Part shown: piece by piece, positions 16,555 through 58,200 of the stretch | Layout: every line of letters begins with the position of its first letter | How positions within the stretch are numbered: position 1 is the stretch's first letter | The notes under the pieces: generated by a model | Databases searched by the model: none | What the model saw: the letters and a program-made list of their open reading frames with translations, nothing else | What the model was told of the DNA's origin: nothing | Made by a program: the position numbers and the translations under genes | NCBI GenBank assembly: GCA_964016885.1 | Contig: OZ024746.1 | Location: 51,708,001-51,772,000 of the forward strand | Origin: Eledone cirrhosa | Taxonomy: Eukaryota | Direction of reading: 5' to 3' | DNA length: 64,000 nucleotides

Positions 16555-17417
16555 ATGTATGTATGTATATATGTGTGTGTATATATATGTATGTCTCTCT
16601 ATTTATATGTCTATCTTCGTATCTATGTGGATATATGTGTGTGTGTGCATGTATACACATATATATGTGTTTACGTGTATATGTGTGTATGTGTATATAT
16701 GTGTGTGTGCACACACATATATATGTGAGTGTGTGTATGTGTGTGTGTATATGTATGTGTATATATATATATATATATCTATGTGTGTATATATGTCTAT
16801 ATTCGTATGTGTATATATATATATATATATATATAAATTATTTATTATTATAATATAACTTATGTGTATGTGTGTATATGTGAGGGTGTGTATATGTATA
16901 TATATGTGTATATATATGTGTAAAAAAATATATATGTGCATGTCTGTTGTTTATGTGTGTGTATATATATATATGTGTATATATATGTATATGTGGGTGT
17001 TTGTATGTGTGTTTATGGTTGTATGTGTGTGTGGGTCTATATATATAAGTGTATGTGTATATATATATATATATATATATGTGTATATATATCTCTATTA
17101 ATGCGTGTATATATGTATATGTATATGCCTTTTTCTTTGTATGTCTGAGTTGTGTGAGGGTGTAGTGGTGTTTCTATGTATATACGCATATATGGATGCG
17201 TATGTATTTGTATATATGAGTATATGTAAGTGCGTATGTATGTATGAATATATATCTAATTCTATGTATGAGTATATATATATGTGTGTGTATGTATGTT
17301 GTGTGTGTATGTATGTATATGTCTATGTGTGTATATATATATGTATGTATGTGTGTGTATGTATGTATGTATGTGTATGTATGTACATATATGTCTATGT
17401 ATGTGTGTATGTATATG

Positions 17418-17478
<61 letters not shown>

Positions 17479-17674
17479 TTATTTTTTATATATATGTGTG
17501 TGTGTGTATGTGTGTGTGTGTGTGTATATATATCTTTATATATGTGTATGTGTATGTTCGTGTAGGTGTATGTGTGTGTATGACTATATATGTATGTGTG
17601 TATGTGTGTATGTATATATATCTATGTGTGTGTACATGTATGTATGTGTATGTATGTGTATGTGTGTATATGTG

Positions 17675-17709
<35 letters not shown>

Positions 17710-18007
17710 ATATATATATATATGTATATGTTTCTCTATTTGTATATGTATATGTGTATAGGTATATACCTTTTTCTTTGTATGTCTGAGTTGTGTGAGA
17801 GTGTAGTGGTGTTTGTATGTATATACCGATATATGGATGCGTAAGTATTTGTCTGTATGTATGTATGTATGTCTGTATATATTTGTGTGTATATATAGGT
17901 ATGTATGTGTATATCTGTATGTATATAAGTATGTAAGTGTATGTATATGTGCGTGTATGTGTGTATATATATGTGCGTCTATATGGTATGTGTGATTATA
18001 TGTGTAT

Positions 18008-18063
<56 letters not shown>

Positions 18064-18173
18064 ATTTATATGTATGTGTGTATATGTATGTATGTGTGTA
18101 TATGTATATGTTTATATATGTGTGTGTATGTATGTTCTAAGTGTGGATGTGTGTATATGTATGTATGTGTTTG

Positions 18174-18204
<31 letters not shown>

Positions 18205-18205
18205 G

Positions 18206-18245
<40 letters not shown>

Positions 18246-18874
18246 CTTGATATATTTCTTTTTTCTTTTTTCTTTTTCTTTTCTTTCCTTTTTAATGTTT
18301 ATTTATTATTTATTATTTTTTATTTTCTTAGTTTATAGATACATCTATAATAAGCAGTCTGCCCAAACCGTTGAATACTGACCTCTCCCCCCCTCCCACC
18401 TAATTTCTGTATCTTGATCTAAATGTGTGTGCCAGTGTTTATGTGAGTGAATTAATATCCATGTGCTTAGGATTTTATATCCACATATATATATGTGAGT
18501 GGGGGTGTGTGTGTGTGTTTGTATGTTCGTAGTTATGTGTATGTTTATGCATATACGCGCGTGTGTGTGTGATTGTACGGATATGTGTGAGTATGAGAAT
18601 ATGTGTATACACTTATTTCATATTTATGTGTCTATACGCATCTTATCTGTGCATTATAAACTTACAGAGACATTAACCTTGAAATTTTGTATTTGCATCC
18701 ATCCTTTTGGTATGCGTATACAAGTTGAGCATACATTTTTGTAAAATATGTGTAAGGGTAGTTACATGTATATACACACACCGAACTGCATTAAACCTTT
18801 TGTATTTTCATTGGTCAATTTTGTTCCCAAACGGACCTGAAATTTTGAATTGTTGTTATTATCAATAAATATAT

Positions 18875-23242: not shown

Positions 23243-25960
23243 AGTCGTTTGGAAGCCTCGACAATGCAAATGGGTAAATCTCCGGGTAACAAGATTCGGT
23301 GGTGGAGAGAGAGATAGATAGATATGTAAGTGGGTGTACGTTGAGATGCGTGGTGTGTATAAGATGTGTAGAAGAATGAAGGAAAGAGTATAAAGGATAA
23401 AATAAAAATAACAACACGCGAGAGAGTTACCCTGGGAGAGATTTAATTGTCCCTATATATTTCGGATTCACATCCATCAACTGGGGGTTTTTTTCCGGGG
23501 TGCGGGAAAGGTTGTCTGTCGGAAAGGTGCGAAACGCGTCCTCTGCTGTTTGTTGTTTTCCGCAGTACCGGTTCCAGAGGGATGCCCTGCAATAGCTCCA
23601 ACTTCCGCAGTGGTGGCTCGAGAGTCAGTACGTAGAGGAGAGAGGGCATCCCTGTCGAATGGATCGAGTGATATGGAACGGCTCCGAGAGGTAGCCGTTC
23701 ACTTTGACCCTTGAGCAGATGTTGCTGTTGTGCATTGCAGCAATCCAGCCCCTGAACACGGGTCAGAAGCCTGCCGCCTCGAGTACCGCATCCAGGTAAC
23801 GATGGTCAACCCTATCGAAAGCCTTAGACTGATCCAAGTTGATCAGGGCCCCACCGAATCCGGGTTTACACCCTACCCTCTCTATGATGTATCGCATGAG
23901 GTGGAGGTTGTCGTGTATGGACCTGGTCGGGATTGCGCATGTCTGCGCTTCTCCCACCAGGTTCTCGACGACAAGCGCCAGCCTCTTTGCCAAGACCTTG
24001 GCCAAAATCTGTAACTCTGTGTTTAGCAGTTATGGGCCGGAAGTTGCCTATGTTATCCCCTTATTCTGGTCCTTCATGACTAGTGTGACTACGCCCCCGG
24101 TCACAGAACTGGGAATTCTCCCGTTCTGTTGCCATTTGCAGTAGACTGCTTCCAGGAGACCGGAGAATAAGTCCGGCATTGCTACGTAAAATTCGTAGGG
24201 TAGACCGTCGAGACCTGGAGATTTGCGTTTGCCGCATTGGCTCAGCGCGTCCCCTATCTCAGCGGCTGAAATAGGCTTTTCGCAGAACTTTGTCTCGCTG
24301 TCCGAGAGTCGCGGTAGGCCATCGAGGTATGGACTGAAATCCATAGACCCTCTCGGCGCGCCACCCTGCCCGAACAGTTGAGCAAAGTGCCGCTGAAAGG
24401 CCGCACACATCTGCTTCGGCTCACGTATCACGCGTCCGTTTTGGTCCTTCGAAGACCGAATCGTGGACTTGTTGCCACTTTTTGCCTCCGTCACTCGGGC
24501 CCAGCTAACAGCTTTGGCTCCCTCGTTTCCCAGAGCACGCATTTTGCTTCTGACAACGCATCCCTCGTCCTTTGCGTCGAAGAAGTGGTCCAAGGCCGTT
24601 CTCGTTGCTAGCACGCTGGCTATGTTGCCACTTCTAATTGCCTCTTCTACTTTATCTACCAGTTCCTTCTCGGTTCTATTTCTATCTAACGCTAATTCTT
24701 TACTAAAAACTAATGAGTCTAATCTAACTGCCCTCTTGAGAGAGTACCACCATCTGTTGTTGACAATGGCCTCTGTCAAGTGCTGTTTAACTAAAGTGCT
24801 AATCCGTCTACTGTAAGCTTTGCATGTCGGTAACGACAAGTTCAGCTTCCAGTAGCCGGATCCTTGTCTATGGGTTCTATCAAGGTTGGCCATGCAGGTC
24901 ACTAGTTTGTGATCTGAATAGGCAACCATGAACATTTGTGGACAGCTTAACATGTCCCTATCCTTATTTCTAACTAGAACCCGATCTAAGTTTGATCTAG
25001 ATGTTCCGCTGCGATTACTCCACGTTCACAGTGGCGCAGTCGGAAAATCTAGTCGATATCTATCGGCCAGGTCAAATCGGTCGATAAACTGTTTGAGGCT
25101 GTTACACCCCCCTTTATCGGGACATGCTCCCACATAGTCCCAACGTGCATCTAAAAGCAAGGAGCGGGACGTTCCCAGAAAAGTCTCTAGACGTTTGAAG
25201 AAGTCTGGCCGCGGTGTCTCGGATGGGGCATATGCAGCCAGCAGCCTGGAAGCTCCACCTTCACTACCGTCAACGTCTAGGACCACCAGTCGACCCTCCG
25301 GGTCCAGATGTACCGTCTGTGTTACGAGGCCCAGGTGTTTTCGCAGCAAAACGGCAACCCCGCTTCACACCCCGGTTGACAGAGAGATGCGTAGATCTCA
25401 AAGTCATCGAAGATGGGGGCCAGATGTCGCTCGCTGTGAATCCTGGACTCGCAAATGGCTACCACATCCATACTGTGCGACCTGAGGTCGTTTAAGAGTT
25501 TGCCCTGTTTCCATGGCATCCCCAGACCGCGTACGTTCACACATCCAACTCTTATATTCGCCATGTTGGTGCTGAAAAGTTAAAAGAGGAAAAGAAATCA
25601 CTCACCCTTCGTCTCCTGGGGACCAGGCTGCACAATTTCCATGGGGGTGTTGGAGGGGTTGTCTGGGTGTGTGGTGGTTTCCGGCGGAGTGGAGACGGAG
25701 ATGTTTGGTGGGGTGGGGTCTGGTGGGATGGGGGTGTCTGGGGTGGGGAGACATTTGAGAAGGACGCGGTTAAGTGGTTTCACGCAGGAATTCCCCACAT
25801 CCTTTTCAAATGTTTCTTTTAGGGACCTATAAGTTTGTATAGGGACCCTAATCAGTTTTAGGTTCTGTTTTTTGTTATTTTTAATAGATTGGGCGAAAGT
25901 TTTCTCTTCGGTGAAAACCGAAGGGTTGTTCGTGATGGTCTCCATCAGTGTTTTTTTTTT
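23240..25960 (-). mobile_element. Tx1/L1-group LINE, internally deleted and frameshifted
   Basis: ORF1 remnant at 25598-25945. ORF2 from 25564 has VNVRGL..ICES (APE), SDHK, GYWKLN, KSPGLDGLPYEFY, LDQSKAFDRVDH and RQGCP. The YADD region is missing. Confidence 0.88.
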
Positions 25961-38607: not shown

Positions 38608-38906
38608 AATTAAGTTAAAAAATGTACATCCACATATGTATACTGAAATACTAGTATGCATATGAATACACACACGTGTACATATGTAGATGTACCGAGT
38701 TTTTCACTGGACACTTTACTGGACACGAAAACCAGTATGACTCTAAAAACCGGTTTGTCTGTGTGTTTACATACAGAATAGCTGGACACTCACAGTAAAG
38801 TGTCCAGTGAAAAACTCGGTACATCTACATATGTACACGTGTGTGTATTCATATGCATACTAGTATTTCAGTATACATATGTGGATGTACATTTTTTAAC
38901 TTAATT
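38608..38906. repeat. Fold-back with ~113-bp apparently perfect inverted arms
   Basis: 38608-38720 versus 38794-38906. Confidence 0.9.
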
Positions 38907-38972
38907 GTTTAAGCGTCAGTCATACAAAAGTGAGTTACAAACGAAACGAAATTTAATTTCGTTTCGTTATTT

Positions 38973-39048
<76 letters not shown>

Positions 39049-39065
39049 ATTTATATATATATATA

Positions 39066-42574
<3,509 letters not shown>

Positions 42575-42820
42575 AATGTAAGTATGCATGTATACGTACA
42601 TACATATATGTATACAGACGTACAGTAGCATGCACATATATATATATATTTATACATATATACATACATATGCATACAGGTACACATACATATATGCACG
42701 TATCAGTTTAGCGGCGCTAACGTCGCTTTGTTCGTTTGTAAACAAACTGAACAGCCTGAATTTATGCCATACGGTGTTAAGGCAACCACGTCACCTTTTT
42801 GTTCAACACTGACACAGGAA

Positions 42821-42861
42821 CGATGTACTAGTTTCAAGCTTGTTAGCTATCATCAGCACCG
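42821..42861 (-). ncRNA. Type I hammerhead ribozyme (monomer 1)
   Basis: cggtg CTGATGA t-agct-aaca-agct-t GAAA ctaGTA catcg. Confidence 0.85.
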
Positions 42862-43285
42862 TTTACCCATGTGCCAGATAGTTGAACGTTCGAAAGTATA
42901 TACTTTCCTTATGAAAATTAACGGCTGAGCAGCCTAATTTGCATATTGAGTGAGTTAAATCGGTCAGGCATACCGAAAACGATAAATTGAAACAAAATGA
43001 AAACGAAATTCATTTCTCACTCTTAGTATGGCACTTACTTAAATGTAAGTATGCATGTATACGTACATACATATATGTATACAGACGTACAGTAGCATGC
43101 ACATATATATATATATATACATATATACATACATATGCATACAGGTTCACATACATATATGCACGTATCAGTTTAGCGGCGCTAACGTCGCTTTGTTCGT
43201 TTGTAAACAAACTGAACAGCCTGAATTTATGCCATACGGTGTTAAGGCAACCACGTCACCTTTTTGTTCAACACTGACACAGGAA

Positions 43286-43326
43286 CGATGTACTAGTTTC
43301 AAGCTTGTTAGCTATCATCAGCACCG
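43286..43326 (-). ncRNA. Type I hammerhead ribozyme (monomer 2)
   Basis: Identical to 42821-42861. Confidence 0.85.
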
Positions 43327-43754
43327 TTTACCCATCTGCCAGATAGTTGAACGTTCGAAAGTATATACTTTCCTTATGAAAATTAACGGCTGAGCAGCCT
43401 AATTTGCATATTGAGTGAGTTAAATCGGTCAGGCATACCGAAAACGATAAATTGAAACAAAATGAAAACGAAATTTCATTTCTCACTCTTAGTATGGCAC
43501 TTACTTAAATGTAAGTATGCATGTATACGTACATACATATATGTATACAGACGTACAGTAGCATGCACATATATATATATATATATATACATATATACAT
43601 ACATATGCATACAGGTACACATACATATATGCACGTATCAGTTTAGCGGCGCTAACGTCGCTTTGTTCGTTTGTAAACAAACTGAACAGCCTGAATTTAT
43701 GCCATACGGTGTTAAGGCAACACGTCACCTTTTTGTTCAACACTGACACAGGAA

Positions 43755-43795
43755 CGATGTACTAGTTTCAAGCTTGTTAGCTATCATCAGCACCG
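43755..43795 (-). ncRNA. Type I hammerhead ribozyme (monomer 3)
   Basis: Identical to 42821-42861. Confidence 0.85.
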
Positions 43796-44134
43796 TTTAC
43801 CCATCTGCCAGATAGTTGAACGTTCGAAAGTATATACTTTCCTTATGAAAATTAACGGCTGAGCAGCCTAATTTGCACATTGAGTGAGTTAAATCGGTCA
43901 GGCATACCGAAAACGATAAATTGAAACAAAATGAAAACGAAATTTCATTTTTTCATTTTTTCATTTCATTTCATTTAGCGCCGCTAAACTGATACGTGCA
44001 TATATGTATGTGTACCTGTATGCATATGTATGTATATATGTATATATATATATATATATGTGCATGCTACTGTACGTCTGTATACATATATGTATGTACG
44101 TATACATGCATACTTACATATATATATATATATT

Positions 44135-44189
<55 letters not shown>

Positions 44190-44190
44190 T

Positions 44191-44227
<37 letters not shown>

Positions 44228-44228
44228 T

Positions 44229-44289
<61 letters not shown>

Positions 44290-44292
44290 TTA

Positions 44293-44323
<31 letters not shown>

Positions 44324-44324
44324 T

Positions 44325-44377
<53 letters not shown>

Positions 44378-44380
44378 ATA

Positions 44381-44425
<45 letters not shown>

Positions 44426-44448
44426 TTATATATATTTATATTTATATT

Positions 44449-44503
<55 letters not shown>

Positions 44504-44506
44504 ATT

Positions 44507-44539
<33 letters not shown>

Positions 44540-44540
44540 T

Positions 44541-44594
<54 letters not shown>

Positions 44595-44669
44595 TATATA
44601 TATATATATATTTATATATATATACTATATATATATATTTATATATATATATATATTTATATATATATT

Positions 44670-44708
<39 letters not shown>

Positions 44709-46019: not shown

Positions 46020-46336
46020 CGTTTCTGAATTGTGTGTGACAGCACGGAGGACCTCCTCAGCAGAATCGACGCGGGTAACCGATCTGGGGACCTAACAAAC
46101 TGCATAATAGGCAGTATGGATGTTGTGTCCCTGTATCCATCTATTGACGTGGATTTTGCTGTGGAGAAATGCGTCGAAATGATCAGCGAGAGCAAGGTTG
46201 AGTTCCGTGGATTGATACCACTGAGCTGGGACTTCTACTTAAGCTTACCCATAGTAATAGTTACCTAGACACTTATGACCTTAGCAACCTGTGCCCTACA
46301 AGACCAGCAAGAGGCAGACCACCTACCATTACCTCA

Positions 46337-47770
46337 ATGGCCAAGAAAACCCACACAGATAGATGGAACGGGTGGACCAGAGCCATACGGACACCCGAAA
46401 ACCACGATGAACTGAAGAAAATGATTGCACATGCGGTAGGGGCCAGCATAAAATTAACCCTTAAGGAACATATGTTCAAATTTAATGGTAAAACATATGC
46501 CCAAGAGGAAGGAGCAGCCATTGGTGTTAGCATTGCAGGCGACATAGCTAACTTGTTCATGGTATGGTGGGACAGTAGACTTAAACAAAAACTTAAAGAA
46601 CAATTAGAAGACAGATTAACCCTGATAATGTACTCCCGCTACGTAGATGATATAAACATCGTAGTTAAGACACCCCCACTAAAGAACAGTCAGGAACCTG
46701 AGAAAAACACAATGGAAAGCATCCAGCAAATAGCAAACTCCATCCACCAGAGCATTAGAGTTACTATAGACTACCCAAGTAGACACCCCAACCATCGATT
46801 ACCTGTACTAGACACAGAGCTCTGGTTAGATACTATTAACAACCAAAAACAAATCCTCCATTCCCATTATGCCAAACCCATGACTTCCAAACATCTGATC
46901 CACCGAAACTCGGCCATTTCGGACCATACCAAAATCAACATACTGATTGCGGATTTGATACGGGTGATGAGAAATGTGTCCCGCATGTGCAACCCCGAAG
47001 AACTAGAGAGACACATACAACACTTCATCCACCGTATGCAATTCTCTGGCTACAATCAGAGAGATAGAATCAGAGTGTATAAAGGAGCCAGAACCAAATG
47101 GGAAAAAATGGTAAATAATGACATAAATGGGACCTGCCCCTTGTATAGGAGCAAATTTTGGAATAGAATAGAAAGAACTAAGAACAAGGCCAATAGAATA
47201 AACTCATGGTATGATAGCAATAAATACCAGAGTGTAATGTTCATCAATACAACCCCTAGAGGTGAACTAGCCTACAAATTTAGAAGGGCCCTAAAGAAAC
47301 ATAATCTCAATATTAAGATAGTAGAAAGACCTGGTACCTCCGTAAAAACACTTATTAGCAAGACATACCCGTTCCAAAGACCCTCATGTATAGATAAGAA
47401 ATGTATAACCTGTAAAATAAGCCCCCATATTAACTGTAAAACTAGAAATGTAGTATATAGCATAAGATGTACTGAGGGACAATGTAGAAACAAAAATATA
47501 GTGTACATAGGTGAGACAGCTCGTAGTATAGGGGAACGAATAAATGAACACTGGCGAGACCTCCAAGATAGTAAAGAATCATCTGTGCTCTACCAACATG
47601 CTAAGATAGAACACAGGGGTAAATTAGAGAGCATAGAAATAAAAATAGAATCCACACACAAGAAAGACGCAATGTTTAGGCAAATTACAGAGGCAGTAAG
47701 CATAAAAGAATTAAAACCAAAATTAAATAGAAAATATGAGTGGAACAGCAACATCACAACTTACAATTAA
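46337..47770 (+). CDS. Penelope-like RT (C-terminal part) + Cys linker + GIY-YIG endonuclease
   Basis: QEEGAAIG, RYVDD, LPVLD, HYAKP, C-x4-C-x2-C linker, VVYSIRC..YIGETAR..ERINEH, RQITEA, LNRK. An upstream frameshift makes it likely non-functional. Confidence 0.9.
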   Translation: MAKKTHTDRWNGWTRAIRTPENHDELKKMIAHAVGASIKLTLKEHMFKFNGKTYAQEEGAAIGVSIAGDIANLFMVWWDSRLKQKLKEQLEDRLTLIMYSRYVDDINIVVKTPPLKNSQEPEKNTMESIQQIANSIHQSIRVTIDYPSRHPNHRLPVLDTELWLDTINNQKQILHSHYAKPMTSKHLIHRNSAISDHTKINILIADLIRVMRNVSRMCNPEELERHIQHFIHRMQFSGYNQRDRIRVYKGARTKWEKMVNNDINGTCPLYRSKFWNRIERTKNKANRINSWYDSNKYQSVMFINTTPRGELAYKFRRALKKHNLNIKIVERPGTSVKTLISKTYPFQRPSCIDKKCITCKISPHINCKTRNVVYSIRCTEGQCRNKNIVYIGETARSIGERINEHWRDLQDSKESSVLYQHAKIEHRGKLESIEIKIESTHKKDAMFRQITEAVSIKELKPKLNRKYEWNSNITTYN

Positions 47771-47989
47771 GGACAAAATGAAAACACACACACACATAGA
47801 ACAAACAACCAACCAACAATAAATAAATAAATAAACAAACAAATATAAATAGAAAAATAGAAAAATGAACACAAACACACACAGACACCCGGATGTGGCG
47901 CATGCGCAAACTGAGCACGCAACCCACACACAAACAAAATGGCGTAGGATAGAAGAAAGGAAAGGCACAGAAACGAAGAAAGAAATCCC

Positions 47990-48034
47990 AGTCACTGAAG
48001 AGGTCACAGAGTGTGTGACGAAAGAACTATGACT
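47990..48034 (+). ncRNA. Type I hammerhead ribozyme motif
   Basis: agtca CTGAAGA g gtcaca-gagtg-tgtgac GAAA gaaCTA tgact. Confidence 0.78.
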
Positions 48035-48199
48035 ATATATATATAAACAACTATCTGGTTGTGGAACCAACCAACCAACCAGAAATTTATAAATTTGTAA
48101 ATTTATAATATATATTAAATTAAATTGAAGTGAAAGCAACTGGTGCGTGTGTTTCTTATTGGCAACATGACCCTCCCAAAGTATAACAATATATATATA

Positions 48200-52083: not shown

Positions 52084-52719
52084 AATTGCATATATATATA
52101 TATATGCAATTCTTCTATTACAATTATACATTTCGTGAGTACTCCAATTACTCTTTGTTGAGTGAGTGAGAACAAACGAGACAACGGAAATCTTTTCCTA
52201 TCGTTCTGTATAACAATATATGTAGTTGTGTGTGTGTGTGTGCGTTGGCGTGTGCGTGTGTGTGTGTGTGTGCAGGTGCTGGTCAAAAGAAAAGACCAAT
52301 CAGCACCCCAAGAAAAGTAAAGAAAGTAAAATGGATAATACAATGCTTACGTCTATGAAACCATTATAATTATATATATATATATATATATAAATGGCTT
52401 CTACAGCACTAGAACTGTTTCATTCGAAGGAAATCATCAAGGCTTTCCTGATCATTTCCTTCGAATGAAACAGTTCTGGTGGTGTAGAAGTCATTTATAT
52501 ATTAATATATCAAACATTTATACTCTACTATGTATTGAGTAACCTACTGACTGCGGTTACTTCAGATTGAACTCGGGATTCACATATCTATCTATCTATA
52601 TATATATATATATATTGTTATAGTTGGGGAGGGTCATATTTGTGTAATATTGCCAGAATTAATAACAGAACACACTCACTGTTTGGTTGGTTTACGCTTT
52701 TGGATTCTGTCTTTTATAT

Positions 52720-52919
52720 NNNNNNNNNNNNNNNNNNNNNNNNNNNNNNNNNNNNNNNNNNNNNNNNNNNNNNNNNNNNNNNNNNNNNNNNNNNNNNNNN
52801 NNNNNNNNNNNNNNNNNNNNNNNNNNNNNNNNNNNNNNNNNNNNNNNNNNNNNNNNNNNNNNNNNNNNNNNNNNNNNNNNNNNNNNNNNNNNNNNNNNNN
52901 NNNNNNNNNNNNNNNNNNN
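52720..52919. other. Assembly gap (about 200 N)
   Basis: Run of N. Confidence 0.99.
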
Positions 52920-57989: not shown

Positions 57990-58200
57990 ATTGGTGTAAT
58001 GGTAGCACAGTGGTCTGGATAACCAAATATGTGGGTTCGACTCCCATCTACGGCAACACTCATCTTTTTCCATTTCTCCGAGGGTTATAAACCCCCACTA
58101 TCAGGCTTGAAATTTCTTTAGTCTAAAATACGGTGAAAGCTTATAATTTCTTATTTCAAACTCGCGCACCGTTTCAAAAACATATTTACATGTTTACGTT
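57990..58200 (+). mobile_element. Second tRNA-like SINE family (another copy at about 60410-60600)
   Basis: A box TAGCACAGTGG and B box GGTTCGACTCC, with a shared body. Confidence 0.65.

Follow-up and report, generated by a model that had tools for sequence, protein, structure and literature searches.

What kind of element forms a short array of near-identical repeats inside a (TA)n microsatellite of Eledone cirrhosa, which enzyme placed it there, and from which RNA template was it copied? The array lies in a 64,000-nucleotide stretch of contig OZ024746.1 (assembly GCA_964016885.1, positions 51,708,001 to 51,772,000), referred to here as the window, in a genome of 3.0 Gb. A previous sequence-only reading had described three near-identical noncoding units with minus-strand hammerheads 465 and 469 nt apart, set in (TA)n and capped by an inverted partial copy. 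Repeat finding, alignment and a motif scan all bear out this description: TRF places a period of 465 with 2.9 copies and 98% matches at 42573-43950, mean column identity across the three aligned units is 98%, the cut-to-cut monomers measure 469 and 465 nt, and (TA)n stands on both sides of the array and its inverted copy. The features of the insertion and its surroundings are as follows, where PLE denotes a Penelope-like element and family R3 is introduced below.

38608..38985, no strand: short inverted R3 insertion with both fixed ends, a piece without a hammerhead
40022..42573, no strand: (TA)n target microsatellite, left flank
42574..43041, minus strand: unit 1, 3'-most on the hammerhead strand; fixed end A (...CATACTTACAT) abuts (TA)n
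42806..42880, minus strand: type I hammerhead motif 1, whose helix I is extended; core 42856-42826 and predicted cleavage after 42826
43042..43507, minus strand: unit 2, complete at 466 nt (36% GC) and containing an internal (TA)n run as well as the A-to-B tail segment
43271..43345, minus strand: type I hammerhead motif 2; core 43321-43291 and predicted cleavage after 43291
43508..43950, minus strand: unit 3, 5'-truncated by ~25 nt at the inversion point
43740..43814, minus strand: type I hammerhead motif 3; core 43790-43760 and predicted cleavage after 43760
43951..43974, no strand: TTTCA-type stutter of 24 nt, read from the sequence, which fills the inversion junction
43975..44119, plus strand: inverted partial unit, 98-99% identical to the unit end, ending at A against (TA)n
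44120..44680, no strand: (TA)n target microsatellite, right flank
46020..48180, plus strand: neighboring coding PLE, 5'-truncated, with RT and GIY-YIG (ORF 46202-47770), a minimal hammerhead at 47995-48029, and two ends with a 56-nt tail

The window unit contains no credible ORF, its longest ATG frames crossing the TA microsatellite. The family to which it belongs, R1, is noncoding, has a GC content below 50% and forms insertions without LTR organization, as retrozymes do; the (TA)n flanks make any target-site duplication (>4 bp in retrozymes when present) unreadable. Elsewhere, the window holds a LINE-type element at 2100-5233 on the plus strand with endonuclease and RT frames (Pfam matches), a broken LINE-type element near 24048-25025 on the minus strand, a partial tRNA match at 57992-58047 on the plus strand (35.8 bits; perhaps the head of a tRNA-derived SINE) and an assembly gap of ~200 N near 52700-52900. 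A 786-aa PLE-like ORF piece at 12569-14929 (minus strand) has a GIY-YIG-like C terminus and no match in a Pfam scan; it sits within inverted repeats at ~9481-12113 and 15651-18326, which together form a large inverted structure.

The three hammerheads have identical type I cores (7-bp helix I, CUGAUGA, helix II, GAAA, ACUAGU and GUA), and the palindromic helix III and GUA site named in the earlier reading are present in 3/3 motifs. In helix I, a UA bulge separates a proximal stem of 7 bp from a distal stem; helix II opens with a U.U mismatch instead of G-C, followed by four pairs. A helix III made of the ACUAGU palindrome is predicted to be too tight to form within one motif, whereas two motifs could pair through it (computed self-duplex energy -6.8 kcal/mol). 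The axolotl HHR_Amex2, whose helix II likewise begins with U.U, cleaves weakly as a monomer and better as a dimer (PMC7229834), and one of nine predicted Xenopus dimers cleaved in vitro (bioRxiv 10.64898/2026.07.22.740005). The Infernal comparison with Rfam, which the earlier reading had proposed, gave a mixed result: a scan at gathering thresholds did not call the hammerheads of the window array, and Hammerhead_HH9 was the sole hammerhead model to score, weakly, at all three motifs (18.5-21.5 bits against a cut-off of 52). An Rfam scan by E-value was rejected, being dominated by microRNA families that match TA repeats.

Among 12 hammerhead variants, drawn from three related families, only positions 7 and 17 of the core vary, 92% of cells pair, and 8 of 23 named pairs have changed on both sides, a count reached in 37 of 500 shuffles. 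The covariation score is 0.399 compared with ≤0.097 for slid controls; the variants stem from approximately three lineages, and the covariation thus represents few events. Compensatory change appears to have conserved the hammerhead structure, in few independent lineages. The circular monomer fold has z-scores of -6.85 (sense) and -4.94 (antisense) at 20 C over 40 shuffles, values inflated by the TA-rich stretches. Older R1 copies and R2 keep the TTATAATAA loop in a covarying hairpin, and the window subfamily has partly lost it (43164-43185 compared with L037 and L093). Seven more hammerhead-like motifs belong to other repeat families of the window (22039, 29711, 30186, 34280, 35310, 39252 and 47995), and the fetched loci carry many further hammerhead types; in several of these, helix III contains an ATATAT palindrome.

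An exact 33-nt core of the unit has 10,650 genomic matches, a count that takes in some R2 copies, compared with zero for the reversed control, and is therefore not a chance string. R2 is a second related family with a unit of ~428 nt, and R3 is a third, with a unit of 468 nt and top copies 99-100% identical. A looser core pattern has 9,600 genomic matches, and all 100 matches listed are of the R3 type. R3 hammerheads carry a GUU or GUC site and G-C at the base of helix II; one copy lies at L032:5514-6930, with further loci at L134-L158. In a three-way alignment of R1, R2 and R3, 205 of 518 columns are invariant and 23 of 109 predicted pairs show a double change, and the catalytic core is kept in R2 and R3 with compensatory stem changes. 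R3 is probably the youngest of the three. The earlier description of a young family holds for the window subfamily but not for the lineage, which is older, as the three families and their invariant columns indicate. The survey of copies and flanks that it had called for reveals thousands of dispersed loci, which disposes of a single-locus duplication. Sequencing runs provide a side observation: contigs of runs X1 and X6 (run kind unrecorded) contain many unit variants, and runs X4 and X5, of two other organism codes, each yield one unit-sized contig (470 and 486 nt) at low depth, 99% identical to the window subfamily. The latter could be contamination, a relative or RNA, and are not used as evidence.

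To describe how these units are inserted, we took the first 100 core matches on contig C1, which fall in 53 stretches, and classed the 55 insertions there that hold a hammerhead. Of these, 31 are inverted with their tails outward, 22 have a single orientation and two are complex; they contain one hammerhead (24 insertions), two (16), three (9), four (5) or six (1). Outward 3' ends fall at two fixed sites, A and B, ~61 nt apart, and 5' ends are scattered along the unit. Inverted insertions combine A with B in 22/31 cases, the other nine having one end unclassed by the script, and none is A+A or B+B; the window insertion, which is A+A, is thus unusual for R1. Single-orientation insertions end at B (14), at A (7) or at an unclassed site (1). 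A few bases of overlap mark most inversion joints. Genome-wide, end B is joined to TA 1,954 times compared with 72 for its control; the end A count (2,755 compared with 1,201) is weak, concerns low-complexity sequence and was set aside. R2 has 13 and 14 ends at its two sites and one elsewhere, and R3 has 19 and 21 at its two. The inversion and the TA target, both noted before at this single locus, are supported by these genome-wide end and architecture counts, and the insertions combine a tail on one end, an inverted 5'-truncated arm, tandem units and a TA target, the features of PLE-mobilized elements.

A PLE protein cuts both target strands and extends them, and the two internal sites of the RNA at which it starts set the tail (PMC11167929), and PLE copies occur in tandem and inverted forms with a tail at one end (PMC8557442). 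By analogy, we read sites A and B as two internal RT start sites of this type. Coding PLEs of this genome have the same two-end pattern, with tails of 56 nt and ~90 nt. Because the two-site tail matches the two internal RT starts of PLEs (PMC11167929), mobilization by a PLE is well supported, and R1 is very probably a PLE-driven, nonautonomous element. The sequence-only reading had named PLE RT as the mobilizer from a likeness to the PLEs nearby; this proposal now has a genome-wide insertion signature behind it, which does not single out a specific neighboring PLE as the partner. The coding PLE at 46020-48180 is an insertion separate from the array. Its protein finds its best named match in Octopus vulgaris (66% identity), with ≤52% identity among the other 119 matches listed, as would suit an octopod host.

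The nature of the template can be approached through the units within single insertions. Within one arm, the median distance per insertion is 0.59% (n = 26); the corresponding medians are 1.04% for units of opposite arms (n = 19) and 4.2% for units of different insertions, and 25 of 33 insertions fall below the 10th percentile of outside distances. In L031/L032, 9/9 full units are identical across both arms; an R3 insertion at G000:C1:30831845-30840500 (L192, L193) has 7+13 hammerheads in two inverted arms, and all 18 compared units are identical. L031, L034 and L035 each carry variants of their own in all units of both arms. Spacing across the cut is exact in 124/129 R1, 42/45 R2 and 104/105 R3 units, many of them from the same arrays. 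Core conservation in loci L051-L103 was left out of these comparisons, those loci having been selected on that core. Cleaved linear monomers were rejected as the usual template, given that 5' ends are not enriched at the cut (eight junctions there compared with seven at one control site), and end-to-end jumping between cleaved monomers is disfavored by the exact cut spacing and the identical units. Identical units and exact read-through together indicate that the template is either a circle or an uncleaved multimer.

We lean toward a circular RNA template, since a circle explains how an array lengthens from one monomer. Rolling-circle copying has been proposed before (PMC4209133 and PMC7229834). 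The circle is nonetheless the weakest step of our reading, in that unprocessed, uncleaved RNA was the dominant substrate for the PLE in vitro and ribozyme cleavage was unneeded (PMC11167929). This finding favors an account in which a PLE-mobilized family is copied from uncleaved linear multimers; these would be transcripts of long donor arrays expanded by unequal crossing-over, and any circles would be by-products. Such copying predicts the same exact read-through and the same lack of a pile-up at the cut. Potential donors exist, and DNA-level array expansion clearly occurs: an R1 array of ~92 units extends over ~50 kb at G000:C4:212912000-212961000 (L045-L050) with an internal distance of 3.9%, an R3 arm of ~30-31 units at G000:C1:5738000-5752700 (L189, L190) has higher-order repeat patterns, and unit variants alternate in the L191 and L054 arrays. 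The ~92-unit array, which is interrupted by other PLE ends, is a satellite grown from the element. However, the DNA-expanded arrays examined are heterogeneous and the long inverted insertions are not; linear copying only shortens, whereas the L031, L034 and L035 lineages each need lengthening from one monomer; and conserved ribozyme stems are less well explained. We regard the linear multimer as the less probable template, though one to be taken seriously.

A more distant alternative is that a rare autonomous PLE has the unit as its pseudo-LTR and that the arrays arose by truncation of that PLE. The architecture is indeed that of PLE ends, and 24 of 57 Xenopus retrozyme families are homologous to Repbase elements, nearly all PLEs (bioRxiv 10.64898/2026.07.22.740005). 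We compared six PLE protein pieces with 104 stretches holding the repeat, 30 of which have flanks of only 1.5 kb, a limit on queries and flanks that leaves this alternative some room. A PLE match is present in 36 of the 104 stretches, and in one (L064) it is joined directly to the unit, at a junction unique in the genome. Across the 104 stretches and six queries, no fixed ORF with RT and GIY-YIG lies upstream of the repeat, and the family is therefore not simply a PLE terminal repeat; the sequence-only reading had named such a terminal-repeat identity as fatal to its own interpretation. Same-orientation PLE neighbors in L053, L097 and L110 had been candidates for joined elements and proved on reading to be separate insertions; those of L040, L042, L059 and L103 stand at least 1.4 kb away. 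Comparison of the three families with other elements in 1.09 Mb of retrieved DNA returned, among the best 45 rows, family members and microsatellites only and no similarity to a coding PLE. The scattered 5' ends also speak against a pseudo-LTR, as does the hammerhead itself, which is of the extended type and combines a conserved loop with a short helix II, where coding PLEs here carry minimal motifs. We judge this origin highly improbable.

The one direct join deserves description. L064:4738-6150 (G000:C1:26.72 Mb) consists, in order, of a TA run, the inverted tail end of a young PLE, a PLE ORF fragment, one retrozyme unit ending at A and a second TA run, and the junction between unit and PLE occurs once in the genome. 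The top copies of this PLE family are 99-100% identical, and its tail junction occurs 1,478 times. A template switch by the enzyme of that PLE is plausible, because one tail end and one A end are what a single event would give; insertion into an existing copy with a deletion is the alternative for this single case (n = 1). The young PLE family is thus a candidate partner of the retrozyme. It and the 786-aa ORF of the window are putatively Hydra-like.

Finally, some arrays do act as satellites after insertion, but spread at the DNA level as a satellite or minisatellite with a fossil or incidental hammerhead is barely credible. Short, scattered insertions number in the thousands, have fixed 3' ends, differ at their 5' ends and include inverted copies, all marks of retrotransposition, and the stems covary between families. 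The fixed-end pattern already largely refutes such spread.

The window array is therefore one insertion of a dispersed family of non-LTR retrozymes, which we consider likely to be copied into (TA)n by a PLE RT-endonuclease, probably from an RNA circle. Arrays would be transcribed on the hammerhead strand, and adjacent hammerheads would pair through the ACUAGU palindrome and excise ~467-nt monomers, to be closed by a host ligase as in the systems of PMC7229834; for R1, we infer self-cleavage and the ~467-nt circular RNA by this analogy. The PLE protein would nick both strands of a TA run, and reverse transcription would start internally at A or B, one start from each strand, yielding two arms that face outward and meet at truncation points that vary. 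Repeated copying round one template would produce identical multi-unit arms, and some arrays would later grow by DNA-level duplication. More tentatively, the three families, with >20,000 cores, may form an active clan of viroid-like RNA circles that a PLE RT copies by rolling circle from two start sites, laying down up to 20 identical units per event, with L064 naming the partner. If so, the genome itself would directly document the life cycle proposed for retrozymes, and a ready in vitro system would be at hand.

This large and partly very young clan belongs to the known non-LTR retrozymes, and every defining feature of that class that sequence can reveal appears to be present (PMC7229834; bioRxiv 10.64898/2026.07.22.740005). 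Plant LTR retrozymes were considered and rejected, as they carry type III hammerheads in paired LTRs and the R1 motif is type I, in tandem units. Like R1, the metazoan elements of PMC7229834, which include retrozymes of a mollusc (mussel), are noncoding tandem units with type I hammerheads, a GC content below 50% and thousands of copies; their circle is predicted to be highly self-paired, and PLEs were proposed as mobilizers. They differ from R1 in unit length (~170-400 nt compared with 467 nt), in that R1 ends at fixed PLE-type tail sites in (TA)n, and in that expression and cleavage of R1 are predicted. The main text of PMC7229834, as far as available, makes no mention of octopus, cephalopod, squid or inverted copies. 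Our literature search turned up neither cephalopod retrozymes nor a description of tailed retrozymes, though cephalopods may be listed in the supplements of PMC7229834 and of the preprint; for the giant squid genome, the published paper, in the part available, counts only 235 Rfam hammerhead-1 matches.

A link between retrozymes and PLEs was proposed earlier from co-occurrence and homology. Li, Clavereau and Pollet 2026 (bioRxiv 10.64898/2026.07.22.740005) conclude, as we do, that animal retrozymes are nonautonomous PLE derivatives, and R1 falls under their definition of two or more successive units whose motifs are complete. Their case, drawn from 31 vertebrates, three insects and a coral, is built on co-occurrence and on homology to pseudo-LTRs, whereas that for R1 is built on an insertion signature and one chimera, with no homology to a coding PLE found. 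PLEs with a C-terminal GIY-YIG domain (PMC8557442, PMC11167929 and PMC4209133) share with R1 partial tandems, an inverted 5'-truncated arm, a tail confined to one end, a hammerhead in the repeat and targets that are AT-rich or (TA)n. R1, R2 and R3 differ from these PLEs in having no ORF, in that the whole element is the repeat, in a hammerhead that is extended and not minimal, and in a tail of 56-74 nt compared with the 30-40 bp quoted for PLEs. To this, R1 adds the PLE-specific tail with two start sites, together with paired-end inversions, on a purely noncoding element present in thousands of copies, and the very young insertions and candidate partner make it testable which enzyme moves animal retrozymes and whether or not a circle is the template.
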